Both the position numbers and the translations under genes were made by a program. The notes beneath the pieces were generated by a model that worked only from the letters and a program-made list of their open reading frames with translations, had not been told where the DNA came from and made no database searches. Below, piece after piece: positions 26,400-36,468 of a stretch of DNA of 64,000 nt (the stretch's first letter is position 1; every line of letters begins with the position of its first letter). Source of the stretch: Escherichia phage vB-Eco-KMB23. Location of the stretch: the sequence record OR525702.1; one strand, given 5' to 3'.

Positions 26400-26612
26400 T
26401 CATTTCGGTTTACCTTCTTTAACGAAATCTGGATAAGGATAAAATCCCGAATAAAATCCTTCACCTTTATGATTGACGCATCCTTTATTAGAACAATAGC
26501 ACCAATAATCGAAATCACAAGCCATTTCATCGTTGCATAAAGCAAAAACAACCGGCCACTTACACTTTTCACAATGGGCATTTTTAAGAATACTAGTTTG
26601 GCTCATAACCAT
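26400..26612 (-). CDS. Cys-rich small protein, probable zinc binder (likely start at MSQTS, 26606)
   Basis: HCEKCKW...CYCSNKGCVNH; preferred over the overlapping-frame ORF 26396..26581. Confidence 0.45.
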   Translation of the reverse strand: MVMSQTSILKNAHCEKCKWPVVFALCNDEMACDFDYWCYCSNKGCVNHKGEGFYSGFYPYPDFVKEGKPK

Positions 26613-31298: not shown

Positions 31299-31351
31299 GT
31301 GTTTCCTTTAAATATTTTAATTAGTAATTTGTCTCTTCAAGCAACTGTGAA

Positions 31352-31382
31352 TATACTATCACAATTCTAGGAGAAAGTAAAC
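31352..31382 (-). promoter_or_regulatory. T4-type early promoter upstream of internal-protein gene
   Basis: Minus strand GTTTAC ... TAGTAT. Confidence 0.45.
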
Positions 31383-31386
31383 AACT

Positions 31387-31917
<531 letters not shown>

Positions 31918-32373
31918 TTAAAAGAGGCTGTTCATTATTCGGTAAAGTGAAGGACCCATCACATATTGCCACTGAGTACGAGGAATAAGAGCAAAAGCAT
32001 CCATCTCTGGAATCATAACGCCATCTTTATTTTCAAAATAAGACTCGCAATGGCAATTTCTGAACATCTCATGCTCTACTGGAATCGTATAATAAAATAA
32101 CTGTAAGTCTTTATTACTAGAATATTTAAATACACCTAGGTCTTCTAGAAGGTCTGGATTATAATTGCTAAAACCGGTCTCTTCTAAGCATTCTCTTTTT
32201 GCAGCTTCCAGTGCATTCAAATCAGAACTTTCTACACGGCCCTTTGGAATATCCCAACGATGTGCCATCATTCCAGGCTTACGAGAACCAGTAACCCGAC
32301 CCATAAATAAATCTTTATCTTCTGTCATAAAGATAATACCAGCTGATAGTGTTTTCATTTTAATTTCCTGCAT
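31918..32373 (-). CDS. nudE: Nudix hydrolase
   Basis: 151 aa; Nudix box GRVESSDLNALEAAKRECLEETG. Confidence 0.85.
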   Translation of the reverse strand: MQEIKMKTLSAGIIFMTEDKDLFMGRVTGSRKPGMMAHRWDIPKGRVESSDLNALEAAKRECLEETGFSNYNPDLLEDLGVFKYSSNKDLQLFYYTIPVEHEMFRNCHCESYFENKDGVMIPEMDAFALIPRTQWQYVMGPSLYRIMNSLF

Positions 32374-32843
32374 TCAGTGATAAAGTTATTTAAATTTTGA
32401 GTATATTTCTTTTCATCAAAAATCTTTTGTTGTCTGCGTAAACGCCATGGCATTTCAATGAACACGCACCACATTCCTGATAATATTGCTGCTGTCAAAA
32501 TATTAACAAGCATAATTAAAAGAATCCAATCTCCTGTTCTGCCTATTGGACTTTCACCAAAGAAGCAAAATACAAATGATGTCACAGGAAAACTAATGAT
32601 ATACCACAGAATCATAATCTTATTTGTAAACCAATCAGCGTTCGTTAGCTTAGCGCGACCATTATGAATACACACGAATTTATCATCTGTTATAATAGAT
32701 GGCTTAGCTGCTTGATATCCCATTCTAAACTCCCTAATCAACAAATTTTTCATATCTTCGGAACAACCATTCCAGTCAACTCTATTAACTGAAATGCCAT
32801 CATCCCCATCATCTAAATCATACCAGCGAGTTTTTAAAATCAT
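32355..32843 (-). CDS. Membrane protein, C-terminal CRKLK tail
   Basis: Two hydrophobic helices; C-terminus FITECRKLK. Confidence 0.5.
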   Translation of the reverse strand: MILKTRWYDLDDGDDGISVNRVDWNGCSEDMKNLLIREFRMGYQAAKPSIITDDKFVCIHNGRAKLTNADWFTNKIMILWYIISFPVTSFVFCFFGESPIGRTGDWILLIMLVNILTAAILSGMWCVFIEMPWRLRRQQKIFDEKKYTQNLNNFITECRKLK

Positions 32844-33202
32844 TTAATTTTCCTGCAATCACTCACAAACTCTTCCATTGATTCTTTTTCAATATAAGAC
32901 ATGTAGTTGTTATATTCCTTTAATTGTATTTTGTAATCCTTTTTTCTTTGCCAATTTATTTTAAAATTATCATAATGAAAATATAACATGGTACCAAAGA
33001 ATGAAAATAATGAAATAATTTTAGTATAGTGAAGTTCACTCCAAACTTCTATTATATTTACTGTGCCGTCAATGTTTAAAATAATACAGTCAATTAACAA
33101 TCCAAAAAGACTACCCGCAAGAGCTGCAGCCAACGCCACAGCAAAAATTAAAAATGACTCAGGAAGAGAATATTTGACTTTATTTAGTTTTGGCTTTTGC
33201 AT
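32840..33202 (-). CDS. Small 2-TM membrane protein, C-terminal CRKIK tail
   Basis: Hydrophobic helices LIFAVALAAALAGSLFGLLI and IISLFSFFGTMLYF; C-terminus EEFVSDCRKIK. Confidence 0.55.
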   Translation of the reverse strand: MQKPKLNKVKYSLPESFLIFAVALAAALAGSLFGLLIDCIILNIDGTVNIIEVWSELHYTKIISLFSFFGTMLYFHYDNFKINWQRKKDYKIQLKEYNNYMSYIEKESMEEFVSDCRKIK

Positions 33203-33576
33203 CGTGATTCCTTAACAAATTTCATAATTTCATCAAATTCATGTGCAGCAAGTTTAAGCTGATGTTCCTTTTTAATCTTTTTACACTGGGCTTTCCAATC
33301 ACGTACACGTTTACGATAGTGTCTTCCTTGATACCAGTATCCCACCCAATTTACAGGTACTAATAAAAATGGAACTATCATTGGAAGAATTAGTGTTGAC
33401 GCAAATATTACATTAGATTCAATATCAGTCATAACATCTATAACTATTCCAACCCCCAGTAGAATTACAAATGATACAGCTATTACAGGACCTATTAATA
33501 CATCAGTAGAAATTAGCTGGCGCTTTAATTCATACTTCAACGGTTTACTTGGAAGATACATTGATGGCTTTGACAT
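33184..33576 (-). CDS. Small 2-TM membrane protein, paralog of previous two
   Basis: Hydrophobic helices; C-terminal segment QCKKIKKEH...MKFVKESRCK. Confidence 0.55.
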   Translation of the reverse strand: MSKPSMYLPSKPLKYELKRQLISTDVLIGPVIAVSFVILLGVGIVIDVMTDIESNVIFASTLILPMIVPFLLVPVNWVGYWYQGRHYRKRVRDWKAQCKKIKKEHQLKLAAHEFDEIMKFVKESRCKSQN

Positions 33577-34159
33577 ATTCTCTACATTCCTTCACAAATT
33601 TTTCTAATAATAAATCGCTTTCAAAATTGGGATTTTCCACGAATTTATCAAAAAGATCATCAACAATAGTTAAGATATTCTTTTTACTAAGAATACGCTT
33701 ATTTTCATGCTTCGTTTCAGAATCAACTATAAGAGTAAAGAAATATTTCTTGCCCTGAAATTTTACAGTAGTATCAATATAGAATAAATTTGACTTTTGT
33801 AAATTACGTTTAAACCATGCATCACTTAAACTATAAACGCCAAGATAATCATAATCGTCGTTTAAATAACAGACCGTCCATTCAGGAGAAACAAAATCAG
33901 TAAATTCAACGTCAAAATCGCATGTTAATGAATGAATTGATTCAATACTGTTAATAAGTATTCCAGGACGTATTAAAGACTTTTTACCTCTAGAAAATCT
34001 TCCAGAAAGATTTTCATCAGTTTCATATGAAGAACCCCAATAATAATTACGTCCTTCTGCCATGCGTTTAAGAGCATTTAGTAATTGGTCTGGAACATCA
34101 ACCTGTCTTTGGAACTCTTCAAACATTGAATTAAAATCACTTTGCATTTTCATTTTCAT
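33545..34159 (-). CDS. Hypothetical protein, 204 aa
   Basis: ORF track. Confidence 0.55.
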   Translation of the reverse strand: MKMKMQSDFNSMFEEFQRQVDVPDQLLNALKRMAEGRNYYWGSSYETDENLSGRFSRGKKSLIRPGILINSIESIHSLTCDFDVEFTDFVSPEWTVCYLNDDYDYLGVYSLSDAWFKRNLQKSNLFYIDTTVKFQGKKYFFTLIVDSETKHENKRILSKKNILTIVDDLFDKFVENPNFESDLLLEKFVKECREYVKAINVSSK

Positions 34160-34180
34160 TCCTATTTACTCCAAGTAATA

Positions 34181-34194
34181 GGGGCCGAAGCCCC
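34181..34194 (-). terminator. GC-rich tetraloop stem-loop (RNA stability element or weak terminator)
   Basis: ggggccgaagcccc; no clear U-tract. Confidence 0.3.
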
Positions 34195-34200
34195 TTATCA

Positions 34201-34794
34201 TTATTTCAGAGAATTAATGTATTCCTGAACATCGGCAGAGGTAGTTTCAACCCCAGAAGTATTACCATTAAAGGTTTCAACTCGAGCAAGGGTATCTTCA
34301 ATATCAACCTTAGTCAGTGCTGCAATTTCAACTACATCATCTGCAGTACTAATTCCAAGGGCATTTGCTGCACGAGTTTCACGGATATATTCCAATTTAA
34401 CTGCAAGTTCTTGGCGAGCATCATCTAACTCAACTACTTTCTTGGCAATTTCAATTCGCATTTCAGCATAACCATCAGCTTTAGTAGTCAACTGCTCAGC
34501 TGTTCGACGATATAGTAAACCGAGTTTAGCATGCATTGTTACATCTTGACCTTCAGAAAGGAGCTTGCGAATTTCGCGCTCTTTTGATTCGGCCTGCTTA
34601 TTCTTTTCGACAATAAGTTCACGAATACGCTTTTCTTCGTTAATAGATTTAATGGAAGCAGTTTTTAGGTCTTTAATCTTATCAAGTAGTTTTGCTGCTG
34701 CAGCAGTATACTGTTCTTCAACAGATAGATTTTTAGCCATAGCAGAACCAAGTTTAGTGCGAATAAACTCAACAATTTTCTTCAGTGTGTTCAT
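34201..34794 (-). CDS. Coiled-coil protein with PspA/IM30-like character, 197 aa
   Basis: Long heptad-repeat helices; loose resemblance to PspA (e.g. [10 protein letters not shown] vs PspA DEAMARFESF); weak. Confidence 0.5.
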
Positions 34795-34836
34795 AGTATT
34801 TCCTTAGGTTGATTAAAATTAAAATCCACAGAAAAA

Positions 34837-35370
34837 TTATATCATGCTATTTAAGAGATGTAAACTATTTTTAATTTTACAAATTCGTTCAGCTTCTTCA
34901 ACAGCGGCAGTGATAATGCTTTTAGCTATAGGAGTACTAATACTAGTAGCTTTTACACTTAACACGATTTCTTTATCTTTACCAGGCCAACCCCACGATT
35001 TTTCACCATGAGTGCCTTTAATTACAGCAGACACCTCAAGTGAGCATCCATTATCACATGTTTTTACATTAACAACCCAAGTGTCACTTTTCTCAACCGG
35101 TTTATCCCAGTAAATATTAAGAATACGTGGGACATCAAATTTAGCAGGGCAAATCTTAACAGTAAGACCTTCGCTTTCTAGCCAATTAATAAGAGGGCGT
35201 TCATACATGCGGCGATGTGGGCTTTGAACTCGACAAGCTTTGTACCCATTGCTTGCGGCTTCACTAAGCTCTTCTAATACCTGCTTTTGCATTATTGATA
35301 AGATACCATCAAAAGATTTTTCGGAAGTTTCATTCAGTTCGGTATAAAGAGACATAACAGTTTTCCTCAA
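34837..35370 (-). CDS. Hypothetical protein, 177 aa
   Basis: ORF track. Confidence 0.55.
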   Translation of the reverse strand: MRKTVMSLYTELNETSEKSFDGILSIMQKQVLEELSEAASNGYKACRVQSPHRRMYERPLINWLESEGLTVKICPAKFDVPRILNIYWDKPVEKSDTWVVNVKTCDNGCSLEVSAVIKGTHGEKSWGWPGKDKEIVLSVKATSISTPIAKSIITAAVEEAERICKIKNSLHLLNSMI

Positions 35371-35881: not shown

Positions 35882-35906
35882 AAAAAGCCCCAACCTTTTG
35901 GTCGGG
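35882..35906 (-). terminator. Rho-independent terminator
   Basis: Minus strand CCCGACC-AAAA-GGTTGGG then GCTTTTTG. Confidence 0.6.
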
Positions 35907-35916
35907 ACTAAGAATG

Positions 35917-36390
35917 TTATTTGATTTGTTTAGCAGACCAAATGCGGTCTTTAATAATTTTTTGGATGTCTTCAACATACTCGAGAGAATGAGCATGTGG
36001 GTTATCTTTAAAGCTATGAGCACGAGCTAGCTTTTGGCCTTCAGTTTTGATTACTAAAAGCTCTTTAAGGATAGCTTCATATTTGGAGATAATTCCTTTA
36101 ACGATATTTTTTTCTTGTGCGACTTTAGGATCTGCTTTAGGAGCAGGTTTACCCGAAGCCTTTGCAAAAGCAGCGCCAGTAGCAACTAAACTTTTCCAGG
36201 CCATACTAACTGCATTTCCCGTAAATCCTTCCGCTTTCATGTCGCGTGCGAACTGGAATCGTGATTCATCAGAAGCATCTTTGTAAGAATATTTACCCGC
36301 TGCAATGGCTGCTTTTGCGACAGCTTGAATTTCGGTGCTAGATGCTTCATTTAACACCGCTTCATTTAAAAATTGAGTATATGATTTCAT
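35917..36390 (-). CDS. Internal-protein-like (capsid-targeting sequence) protein, 157 aa
   Basis: N-terminus MKSYTQFLNEA resembles the IP capsid-targeting sequence with L-x-E cleavage motif; Ala/Lys-rich body. Confidence 0.6.
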   Translation of the reverse strand: MKSYTQFLNEAVLNEASSTEIQAVAKAAIAAGKYSYKDASDESRFQFARDMKAEGFTGNAVSMAWKSLVATGAAFAKASGKPAPKADPKVAQEKNIVKGIISKYEAILKELLVIKTEGQKLARAHSFKDNPHAHSLEYVEDIQKIIKDRIWSAKQIK

Positions 36391-36440: not shown

Positions 36441-36468
36441 AAAAAGCCCCAACCTTTCAGTCGGGGCT
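36441..36468 (-). terminator. Rho-independent terminator (homologous to the 35882-35906 element)
   Basis: Minus strand AGCCCCGAC-TGAAA-GGTTGGGGCT then TTTTT; ends the tRNA/small-RNA transcription unit. Confidence 0.6.

Follow-up and report, generated by a model that had tools for sequence, protein, structure and literature searches.

Do three consecutive small membrane proteins that end in related basic residues come from one gene, or does the likeness of their ends have another source? We followed this question in a stretch of 64,000 nucleotides from Escherichia phage vB-Eco-KMB23 (OR525702.1; hereafter the window), in which the original prediction, made from the letters alone, had placed three small membrane ORFs at 32355-33576 and had read them as the tandem triplication and divergence of one membrane protein. 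The observation is confirmed and its interpretation is partly supported. The coordinates are exact, and comparison with T4 identifies the three ORFs as e.2, e.3 and e.4.

The stretch is that of a Tequatrovirus with 99.4% identity to vB_EcoM_G4507, and 594 phage records match its e.2-e.4 region. The three genes lie on the minus strand, each being called as an ORF and matched at nearly full length by a PHROG profile: e.2 (32355..32843, 162 aa) by phrog_2203 "membrane protein" (E = 4e-78; 1-160/166), e.3 (32840..33202, 120 aa) by phrog_2330 (E = 2e-60; 1-118/122) and e.4 (33184..33576, 130 aa) by phrog_2604 (E = 2e-69; 1-130/130). Protein identity with the T4 orthologues is 80-88%, and 100% identical proteins were found for all three (e.2 and e.3 in ECP52, e.4 in G4507). 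The name e.2 is used in RB51, RB14 and T4, and its homologues carry PF26896; e.3 is annotated as a "predicted membrane protein" in T4; e.4 is T4 e.4 by annotation, with PF26873 on its homologues. Compared with T4 e.2-e.4 nothing substantive differs, and e.2 is intact here (162 aa). These are T4 genes that have already been catalogued, as uncharacterised small inner-membrane proteins; there is no novelty at the gene level, and the motif and the junction behaviour described below are modest new detail. The "sulfurtransferase" names given to e.3 and e.4 homologues in some bacterial assemblies are annotation noise, which no HMM library backs.

The gene order e.6-e.5-e.4-e.3-e.2-nudE-e is common to RB51, RB14, T4, G4507 and OR525702.1. 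In this string, e.5 (33545..34159, minus strand, 204 aa, phrog_2607) encodes a soluble protein with no hydrophobic segment that ends ...EKFVKECREYVKAINVSSK, and the Nudix hydrolase gene nudE (31918..32358, minus strand; PF00293, E = 4e-13) is the last of the overlapped cistrons. In the direction of transcription e.2-e.4 are therefore upstream of nudE, not downstream of it as had been written.

Two hydrophobic helices had been proposed for each protein, and TM prediction bears this out. In Kyte-Doolittle profiles (19-residue windows), the segments are at residues 75-96 and 103-131 in e.2 and at about 26-48 and 56-80 in e.4, while e.3 has a strong segment at 16-42 and a shorter, weaker one at 62-76. 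The predicted TM hairpins cover aa 75-130 of e.2 (nt 32454-32621), 16-76 of e.3 (nt 32975-33157) and 26-81 of e.4 (nt 33334-33501), followed by cytoplasmic tails at aa 131-162, 77-120 and 82-130, respectively. The three proteins have in common two hydrophobic helices joined by a short acidic loop and followed by a basic C-tail, and e.2 alone has an additional N-terminal soluble domain of 74 aa (aa 1-74). An N-in/C-in topology is predicted for all three, and it fits the distribution of lysine and arginine (4-10 in the N-terminus, 0-1 in the loop and 9-15 in the C-tail). In the AlphaFold2 model of e.3 (mean pLDDT 76.8), helices span residues 13-42, 50-56 and 58-119, so that TM2 and the tail form a single helix (58-119) with a tail pLDDT of 84-90; the model of e.2 has a mean pLDDT of 50.4 and does not resolve the N-terminal domain.

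The tails end ...NNFITECRKLK in e.2, ...EEFVSDCRKIK in e.3 and ...QCKKIKKEH...KFVKESRCKSQN in e.4. Translating the full 64 kb in six frames yields exactly three instances of F[IV]x[ED]C[RK] (0.02 expected), at the C-termini of e.2, e.3 and the soluble e.5. The e.4 variant is FVKESR, and a terminal FVKE[S/I/V]R is the true e.4 counterpart. Of the basic motifs originally listed as related, those of e.2 and e.3 stand, together with this variant; the internal QCKKIK of e.4 does not correspond to CRK(I/L)K, since it reads QCAKAQ or KCVSLQ in other genera and its match is not significant, and it was rejected as a second motif copy. At the DNA level, the 18-nt string TGCAGGAAAWTWAAATGA is present in two exact copies, against 0.07 expected. 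Smith-Waterman alignment of e.2 with e.3 gives z = 4.3, a score attained in 3 of 1000 shuffles, and hhalign of these two tails only gives a probability of 95%. For the hhalign matches in the tails, the probabilities are 67-95% for e.2-e.3, 88% for ORF133c-e.2, 86% for ORF133c-e.3 and 84-88% for e.3-e.4 (over 41-43 columns), with real scores of 33-39 and all 16 reversed-sequence controls at or below 26.6. By these measures the C-terminal similarity, whose significance had been singled out for checking, is beyond chance.

The motif is kept in orthologues from five genera. It is not restricted to membrane proteins or to e.2-e.4, since e.5 and RB69ORF133c, a Mosigvirus hairpin protein, also bear it. 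The consensus tail is (L/M)-(E/N)-x-F-(I/V)-x-(E/D)-C-(R/K), which is degenerate in e.4. An alignment of 11 sequences contained no stretch of sufficient conservation to query IMG/VR for more tail-bearing proteins; scanning with a 5-sequence alignment returned 167 stretches with the pattern, among which only copies of ORF133c were confirmed, and the scan with e.4 returned only 9 loci.

Translational coupling, with a Shine-Dalgarno (SD) sequence inside the 3' codons of the upstream gene and ATGA overlaps, is a general principle, and the junctions here follow it. The overlaps along e.5>e.4>e.3>e.2>nudE are 32, 19, 4 and 4 nt; those at e.3/e.2 and e.2/nudE are ATGA overlaps, and the nudE ATG overlaps the e.2 stop codon. 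The motif DNA holds the SD and start codon of the next cistron. The e.2 motif (F154-K162, FITECRKLK; 32358..32384, minus strand) contains the nudE SD AGGAAA at 32364-32369, and the e.3 motif (F112-K120, FVSDCRKIK; 32843..32869, minus strand) contains the e.2 SD AGGAAA at 32849-32854. In the e.4 motif (F120-R125, FVKESR; 33202..33219, minus strand), the K-E codons AAGGAA are the SD of e.3, whose ATG is 5 nt downstream, and in the e.5 motif (F188-R193, FVKECR; 33581..33598, minus strand) AAGGAA precedes the e.4 ATG by 10 nt. These last two tails also share a repeat (D8; 33586-33601 and 33207-33222, 94%). Of 12 tails, 10 have AAGGAA, GAGGAA, AAGGAG, AAAGGA or AGGAAA within the motif, where it takes up the x-E or R-K codons and precedes the next ATG by 5-10 nt; the two that differ are Mosigvirus e.5, with no clear SD there, and VR26 gp139. 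Because they serve as the SD and ATGA of the next gene, the K-E (AAGGAA) or R-K (AGGAAA) codons and the terminal K-stop (AAATGA) are fixed. General coupling explains these positions, but leaves unexplained the conserved F, I/V, C and R as well as the absence of F[IV]x[ED]C[RK] from the 17 remaining ATGA overlaps of the window (19 in all, among 110 genes). For the junction RNA, no Rfam match was found at E <= 1 in 31300-35000, and folding was not significant (z-scores 0.28, 0.24, -1.73 and 0.45).

Tail and hairpin evolve at quite different rates. The hairpin is the fastest-evolving part of all three proteins, with dN/dS of 0.49 in e.2, 0.40 in e.3 and 0.76 in e.4, against 0.09-0.13 in the tails. 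The evolving interaction with the host envelope that had been suggested is compatible with the hairpin values and is unproved by them, because none exceeds 1. Tail dS (0.17) is the same as that of the rest of the gene, and the motif codons vary: Cys is TGT or TGC, Arg is AGA, AGG, CGT or CGA, Phe is TTT or TTC, and the Ile/Val position is ATT, ATC, GTG or GTT. In VR26 gp139 and ORF133c, the motif is retained though the working SD is elsewhere. These substitution patterns show that purifying selection acts on the amino acids of the tail peptide. The synonymously variable fraction of the last 14 codons is 0.07-0.21, compared with 0.14-0.29 elsewhere, therefore some conservation at the nucleotide level exists as well; the two layers are separable in part, not fully.

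The distribution of the genes argues against a simple triplication in place. In Tequatro-, Mosig- and Gaprivervirus, e.4 and e.3 are always adjacent and stand with e.5/e.6. In Mosigvirus, e.2 is about eight genes away from e.3, and in Dhaka- and Kanagawavirus, where e.3/e.4 were not seen, e.2 is linked to nudE/e. On this comparative evidence e.2-e.4 are not a simple in-place triplication; what stands of the tandem triplication and divergence is the shared architecture and the tail motif, and what lacks support is similarity over the whole length and an origin in place.

Within Tequatrovirus, e.2 forms an insertion/deletion cassette, and the direct repeats of 30-60 nt on either side of it come from the tail-coding junctions. 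The left copy (32809..32869) covers the e.3 tail and then the e.2 start, the right copy (32325..32384) covers the e.2 tail and then the nudE start, and both are imperfect. Within them, D2 (30 nt, 80%) and D6 (19 nt, 79%) flank e.2 at a spacing of 485/484, and the alignment of the e.3/e.2 with the e.2/nudE junction ranks among the best 0.15% of 5995 junction pairs. Only the 30-nt core of the repeat can be relied on; the 60-nt extent depends on the D6 extension, which could be chance. At the level of Tequatrovirus records, e.2 is present in about 447, compared with 498 for e.3 and 498 for e.4. For example, e.2 is missing in T2 and in one further locus (L010), where e.3 ends CRKLK and the junction is a hybrid of the e.3-left and e.2-right ones; the linkage of e.2 to nudE in other genera is the one basis on which we infer that e.2 was deleted in T2 and not inserted elsewhere. 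The gene is also frameshifted in the T4 record OZ209023 and in fPS-2. P0051 has an in-frame e.4::e.2 fusion without e.3, and a Mosigvirus contig (L013) has an internal deletion of e.3 in which the tail and the ribosome-binding site are retained. For e.2, the tail-coding repeats thus act as joints where cassettes are lost or joined. As natural insertion/deletion cassettes, e.2 and e.3 are dispensable accessory genes.

This behaviour resembles the shuffling by PeSLs, which accounts for modular exchange in the hyperplastic regions of T4-type phages (Arbiol et al. 2010, PMC2839356; Comeau et al. 2014, PMC4122927). In both cases, short boundary repeats in a hyperplastic region are recombination substrates, and non-essential ORFs (here e.2 and e.3) are present or absent. 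PeSLs, however, are intergenic cassettes composed of a promoter (sigma-70-like, early) and a terminator stem-loop, whereas the repeats around e.2 are part of coding sequence, in genes that leave no intergenic space between them, and encode a peptide motif and the ribosome-binding site of the next gene. At the e.5-nudE junctions, which overlap by 4-32 nt, neither a promoter/terminator pair nor a stable hairpin was found.

Similarity among e.2, e.3 and e.4 is detectable just in the last 13-25 residues, and dropping the last 12 abolishes the profile signal. With profiles built from Tequatrovirus only, the pairs score 9%, 1.8% and 1.4% probability, and cross-genus profiles match in the tail only; for e.3-e.4, hhalign of the tails only gives 41%, which falls to 5.7% once the last 12 aa are removed. 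Hairpin-only hhalign comparisons were none of them above the reversed-sequence controls. Paralogy of the whole proteins cannot be demonstrated from such alignments and is not supported as stated. Tequatrovirus e.3 hits phrog_2604 (E = 0.03) and Gaprivervirus e.4 hits phrog_2330 (E = 0.0034), both full-length and collinear. Because they are always adjacent and show these weak reciprocal hits, e.3 and e.4 probably go back to an old tandem duplication. A search of 1.84 billion representative proteins with the e.3 profile gave 6 hits, all e.3-like or fragments, with no bridging family and nothing that points to a function. C-terminal similarity between overlapping genes, it should be cautioned, need not mean simple paralogy.

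In an ancient version of the original reading, the C-terminal half of e.2, e.3, e.4 and ORF133c would all come by gene duplication from one hairpin-plus-tail ancestor; the rapidly evolving hairpins would have lost all recognisable similarity, leaving the functionally constrained tail alone alignable, and e.2 would later have gained its N-terminal domain and moved. This is possible but doubtful. Architecture and topology are alike in all of these proteins, the N-terminal pattern M-x-K-P-x-L is common to e.3 and e.4, and hairpins with the dN/dS given above are predicted to lose their similarity quickly. The PHROG cross hits, moreover, are collinear over hairpin and tail: besides the reciprocal e.3/e.4 pair, Gaprivervirus e.3 hits phrog_2203 at E = 7e-4 (residues 37-116 against 91-165) and ORF133c hits it at E = 2.8e-4, and several queries have, of all 38,880 PHROGs apart from their own, the neighbouring family as their best match. 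Such hits may, however, be driven by the tail and extended through hydrophobic segments; hairpin-only comparisons stay within the reversed-sequence controls; the same tail on soluble e.5 is unexplained by descent of hairpin proteins, and the genus distribution of e.2 is separate from that of e.3/e.4.

At the other extreme, the resemblance could be an accident of small, unrelated proteins having tails rich in lysine and arginine. Pairwise BLASTP E-values are just 0.007 to 0.09 and shuffling gives z = 2.65 for e.4 with e.6, a control pair, but the motif count, with all occurrences at adjacent C-termini, the conservation across five genera and the profile scores above every reversed control leave this explanation effectively refuted. 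The tail might instead be a by-product of translation, in which similar codons arise convergently under the demands of the SD (AAGGAA/AGGAAA), of an A/U-rich enhancer (UUUAUU, translated as F-I) and of the ATGA overlap, with no shared ancestry or protein function. The K-E, R-K and terminal K-stop codons coincide exactly with the SD and ATGA, and synonymous variability is slightly lower in the last 14 codons; another gene of the window ends ...DFVKEGKPK in the same SD context, and convergent "...RNG.." ends in Kanagawavirus e.2 and Gaprivervirus e.4 come from CGN-AAT-GGN with an embedded ATG. We consider it improbable, since F[IV]x[ED]C[RK] is confined to these junctions, the Cys and Arg codons fall in the spacer and vary synonymously (for Arg, across both codon families), the motif stays where the SD is elsewhere, tail dS equals that of the gene body, and the junctions have no conserved RNA structure or Rfam match.

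The reading that we prefer, at a rough probability of 0.55, is that e.2, e.3 and e.4 are T4 accessory hairpin proteins whose shared tail is at once a motif, a ribosome-binding site and a repeat joint, with e.3 and e.4 as old paralogues and e.2 as a separate module. They would be dispensable inner-membrane proteins made from the overlapped string e.5>e.4>e.3>e.2>nudE, each ending in a long cytoplasmic helix continuous with TM2, in whose last turns the motif lies. The motif DNA has a triple role, as the code for a selected peptide, as the SD and start of the next cistron, and, as seen for e.2, as a short direct repeat at successive boundaries. The e.2 module would be ancestrally linked to nudE and a neighbour of e.3 only in Tequatrovirus. 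The region is a clean case of a single short stretch that answers to three constraints at once (peptide, ribosome-binding site, recombination joint).

As to function, the conserved tail could be a common cytoplasmic docking or oligomerisation helix, also carried by e.5 and RB69ORF133c; the basis for this suggestion is conservation and a heptad-like hydrophobic spacing. The fast-evolving TM and periplasmic hairpin would then supply the variable part, a specificity at the level of the envelope that might serve exclusion or counter-defence, for instance. A stronger version, in which one portable docking or oligomerisation helix joins the early proteins e.2-e.5 and RB69ORF133c, unrelated in other respects, to a single partner or complex and its DNA doubles as ribosome-binding site and cassette-swap joint, we regard as unlikely; if true, protein motif, translation signal and recombination joint would be united in one module, a coding counterpart of PeSLs. 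In either case, a clear tail motif that runs through four neighbouring T4 gene products and a Mosigvirus protein offers a handle for finding a partner or function.

T4 encodes other small inner-membrane accessory proteins, among them Imm and Sp, which act in superinfection exclusion, and rI, which acts in lysis inhibition. Like them, e.2-e.4 are small, dispensable membrane proteins among the T4 accessory genes, for which envelope-level roles are plausible, but there is no sequence relationship between the two sets. Scans of e.2-e.4 against PHROGs, Pfam, NCBIfam and PADLOC returned their own uncharacterised families only, with no exclusion, holin, spanin, defence or anti-defence match; a PDB sequence search with the e.4 profile gave nothing meaningful, and literature searches on e.2-e.6 found no functional study. 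Below threshold, e.4 scores 18.7 bits against the Bfi1 immunity family (cut-off 100), and Gaprivervirus e.4 matches an Rz-like family at E = 0.28. The idea that e.6 is a PspA/IM30-like partner of small membrane proteins was dropped, having no support from Pfam, PHROG, NCBIfam or PDB sequence searches.

Upstream of e.6 we located an early-type promoter-like site (34836..34864, minus strand), TTTACA-17-TATAAT with TG, recognised by consensus match only (11/12 matches). It is the probable source of an e.6-e.5-e.4-e.3-e.2-nudE transcript, and e.2, e.3 and e.4 are probably expressed early.

The window belongs to a Tequatrovirus. Positions 31300-34900 share 99.4% identity with Escherichia phage vB_EcoM_G4507, and the region matches 594 phage records. 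The three consecutive small ORFs of the original prediction were delimited exactly, and they are the already known T4 ORFs e.2 (32355-32843; 162 aa; PHROG 2203), e.3 (32840-33202; 120 aa; PHROG 2330) and e.4 (33184-33576; 130 aa; PHROG 2604), all on the minus strand and matching these PHROGs at E = 1e-60 to 1e-78. In RB51, RB14 and T4 they carry the same names and are described as “conserved hypothetical, predicted membrane proteins”. Homologues of e.2 and e.4 carry Pfam PF26896 and PF26873, respectively, and those of e.3 carry no Pfam domain. Downstream of an early-type promoter-like site before e.6, the genes e.5 (33545-34159), e.4, e.3, e.2 and nudE (31918-32358) make up a cistron string in which neighbours overlap by 32, 19, 4 and 4 nt.

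Two hydrophobic helices had been proposed for each protein. Hydropathy analysis agrees for e.2 and e.4, while e.3 has one strong helix and a shorter second one. In the AlphaFold2 model of e.3 (pLDDT 76.8), TM1 (13-42) leads into a short helix in the loop and then a single long helix (58-119) that extends from TM2 through the entire tail. Lys and Arg cluster in the N- and C-terminal segments of the three proteins, with hardly any in the loop, a pattern that fits an N-in/C-in topology.

Translated in all six frames, the whole window contains the motif F[IV]x[ED]C[RK] three times (0.02 expected), each time at the C-terminus of one of the adjacent genes e.5, e.3 and e.2, and e.4 carries the variant FVKESR. 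The C-terminal similarity noticed originally is thus correct and non-random; other genera do not conserve the second e.4 element, QCKKIK, and its match is not significant. Across genera, the tails read NLNxFIxECRK in e.2 (FIKGCR in Kanagawavirus), ExFIKEC(R/K) in e.3, EFVKE(S/I/V)R in e.4 and FxxECREY in e.5, and F and C/R belong to the small number of invariant columns in every alignment. A fifth motif protein is the Mosigvirus-specific RB69ORF133c (150 records; 101 aa), a two-TM hairpin protein ending in LENFIKECRGK. For example, it is gp120 in PhAPEC2 (L023:1208-1513), which ends in STNLENFIKECRGK. Its tail matches those of e.2 (88%) and e.3 (86%), and it has a weak collinear match to the e.2 PHROG (E = 2.8e-4). 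The motif and junction analysis adds modest new detail, with limited surprise.

Within the motif, the x-E codons are AAGGAA, GAGGAA, AAGGAG or AAAGGA, and the R-K codons of Tequatrovirus e.2 and e.3 are AGGAAA. These Shine-Dalgarno (SD)-like codons lie 5–10 nt upstream of the ATG of the next gene, and the terminal K-stop forms an AAATGA overlap. Part of the motif is thus imposed by translational coupling. However, the motif is more than a by-product of coupling, because the window's other 17 ATGA junctions (stop/start overlaps) all lack it, the Cys (TGT/TGC) and Arg (AGA/AGG/CGT/CGA) codons in the spacer vary synonymously, VR26 gp139 and RB69ORF133c keep it although a working SD lies elsewhere, tail dN/dS is 0.09–0.13 while tail dS equals that of the gene body, e.5 and nudE, and the junctions have neither RNA structure nor an Rfam match. 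Judged from sequence, the analysis shows an overlapped and translationally coupled cistron string, in which the tail-coding segment has a dual role as protein and ribosome-binding site. A C-terminus is independently shaped by a ribosome-binding site in a small minus-strand ORF at 26406-26612: it terminates in DFVKEGKPK-stop, its K-E-G codons contain the next gene's SD, and the two genes overlap at ATGA.

The hairpins evolve faster than the tails, with dN/dS of 0.49 (e.2), 0.40 (e.3) and 0.76 (e.4) at unchanged dS, and indels and mosaic variation are concentrated in them. Hydrophobic residues recur at i, i+3/4 and i+7 in the conserved last part of the long cytoplasmic helix; this part may be a docking or oligomerisation element common to the hairpin proteins and the soluble e.5, and the variable hairpin could provide envelope-level specificity. 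Searches of PHROG, Pfam, NCBIfam and PADLOC, and of PDB with the e.4 profile, found no homology to a characterised family, and among 1.84 billion proteins the very narrow e.3 family has 6 representatives. Residues 29-107 of e.4 (33184-33576) match NCBIfam NF053699 (“Bfi1 family immunity protein”) at E = 0.0013 and 18.7 bits (cut-off 100), probably driven by TM composition. NCBI names e.3/e.4 homologues in Salmonella, Shigella and E. coli assemblies “sulfurtransferase” and one e.3 homologue “DNA primase”, names supported by no profile library.

In pairwise BLASTP and shuffle tests of paralogy, support was limited to 13–14 residues of the e.2/e.3 tail, and the shuffle z-score of 2.8 for e.3/e.4 was matched by the control pair e.4/e.6 (2.65). 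Using Tequatrovirus-only profiles, hhalign gave probabilities of 9%, 1.8% and 1.4%. With orthologues from Mosig-, Gapriver-, Dhaka- and Kanagawavirus added, they were 84–88% for e.3-e.4 (41–43 columns), 67–76% for e.2-e.3 (17–18 columns) and 43–49% for e.2-e.5, and the 16 reversed-sequence controls all scored <=26.6. The signal was gone when the last 12 residues were removed; tail-only comparisons gave 95% (e.2-e.3) and 41% (e.3-e.4), and hairpin-only comparisons gave no signal above the reversed-sequence controls. PHROG scans found weak cross-family matches, collinear over hairpin and tail: the e.3 family was hit by Gaprivervirus e.4 (E = 0.0034), the e.4 family by Tequatrovirus e.3 (E = 0.03) and the e.2 family by Gaprivervirus e.3 (E = 7e-4). 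Given the tail-confined signal and these collinear matches, the three proteins, above all e.3 and e.4, may have an ancient common origin, which is demonstrable no further than the tail.

Gene order is e.6-e.5-e.4-e.3 followed by unrelated small ORFs in Mosigvirus MM02 and Gaprivervirus VR26. In Dhakavirus QL01 and Kanagawavirus PEi20, e.2 adjoins nudE/e with a 228-aa ORF upstream, and e.3/e.4 were not found at this locus; in Mosigvirus PhAPEC2, e.2-ORF130c-nudE-e lies ~8 genes from e.3. Therefore, the adjacency of e.3 and e.2 is confined to Tequatrovirus. The proposed tandem triplication is correct only in part. Directly 3' of e.3 in MM02 (L004:2857-3651) and VR26 (L006:3191-3979), three consecutive small soluble ORFs (65–101 aa) all end in G(G/A)WV(S/A)SS..C-stop (e.g. 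WVSSSALC, WVASSHTC, WVSSSYSC), giving this hyperplastic region a second tandem group that shares a conserved C-terminal motif.

In Tequatrovirus, e.2 is bounded by imperfect direct repeats (32355-32384 and 32840-32869; 80% identity, 485-nt spacing), possibly extending to ~60 nt. In phage T2 and IMG/VR contig L010, which are without e.2, e.3 overlaps nudE directly and its tail is CRKLK (AGG AAA TTA AAA TGA), compared with CRKIK in e.2-containing phages. Their junction is a hybrid that reads as e.3 to the left and as e.2/nudE to the right, the expected product of recombination between the repeats. At Tequatrovirus level, ~447 records contain e.2, and 498 each contain e.3 and e.4. In T4 record OZ209023 (L017:1601-2088) and Yersinia phage fPS-2 (P0050), e.2 is frameshifted after codon ~95–102 and the rest runs in another frame as far as FITECRKLK. 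The two halves of such a gene are apparently represented by PHROGs 35263 and 35580. Escherichia phage vB_EcoM-UFV05 (P0051) has a natural in-frame fusion in which residues 1-31 of e.4 are joined to residues 87-162 of e.2 through a “PV” common to both where TM1 starts, with e.3 and most of both parents deleted. In a Mosigvirus IMG/VR contig (L013:3380-3495), ~240 nt are missing inside e.3, which removes the hairpin; 12 nt at the 5' end and ~95 nt at the 3' end remain, with the tail and the next ORF's ribosome-binding site. These cases show that e.2 and e.3 are dispensable cassettes with insertion/deletion polymorphism, e.2 being lost via the repeated tail junctions and e.3, in L013, by internal deletion.

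Nearby, the ORF at 35911-36384 lies between two near-identical terminator-like hairpins (35886-35909 and 36445-36468, minus strand; AGYCCCGAC....GGTTGGGGCT and then a T-run), and its counterpart in the RB51 record is annotated “flanked by 34 bp imperfect direct repeat”. The arrangement looks like a cassette boundary of the PeSL type (promoter and terminator stem-loop cassettes of T4-type phages).
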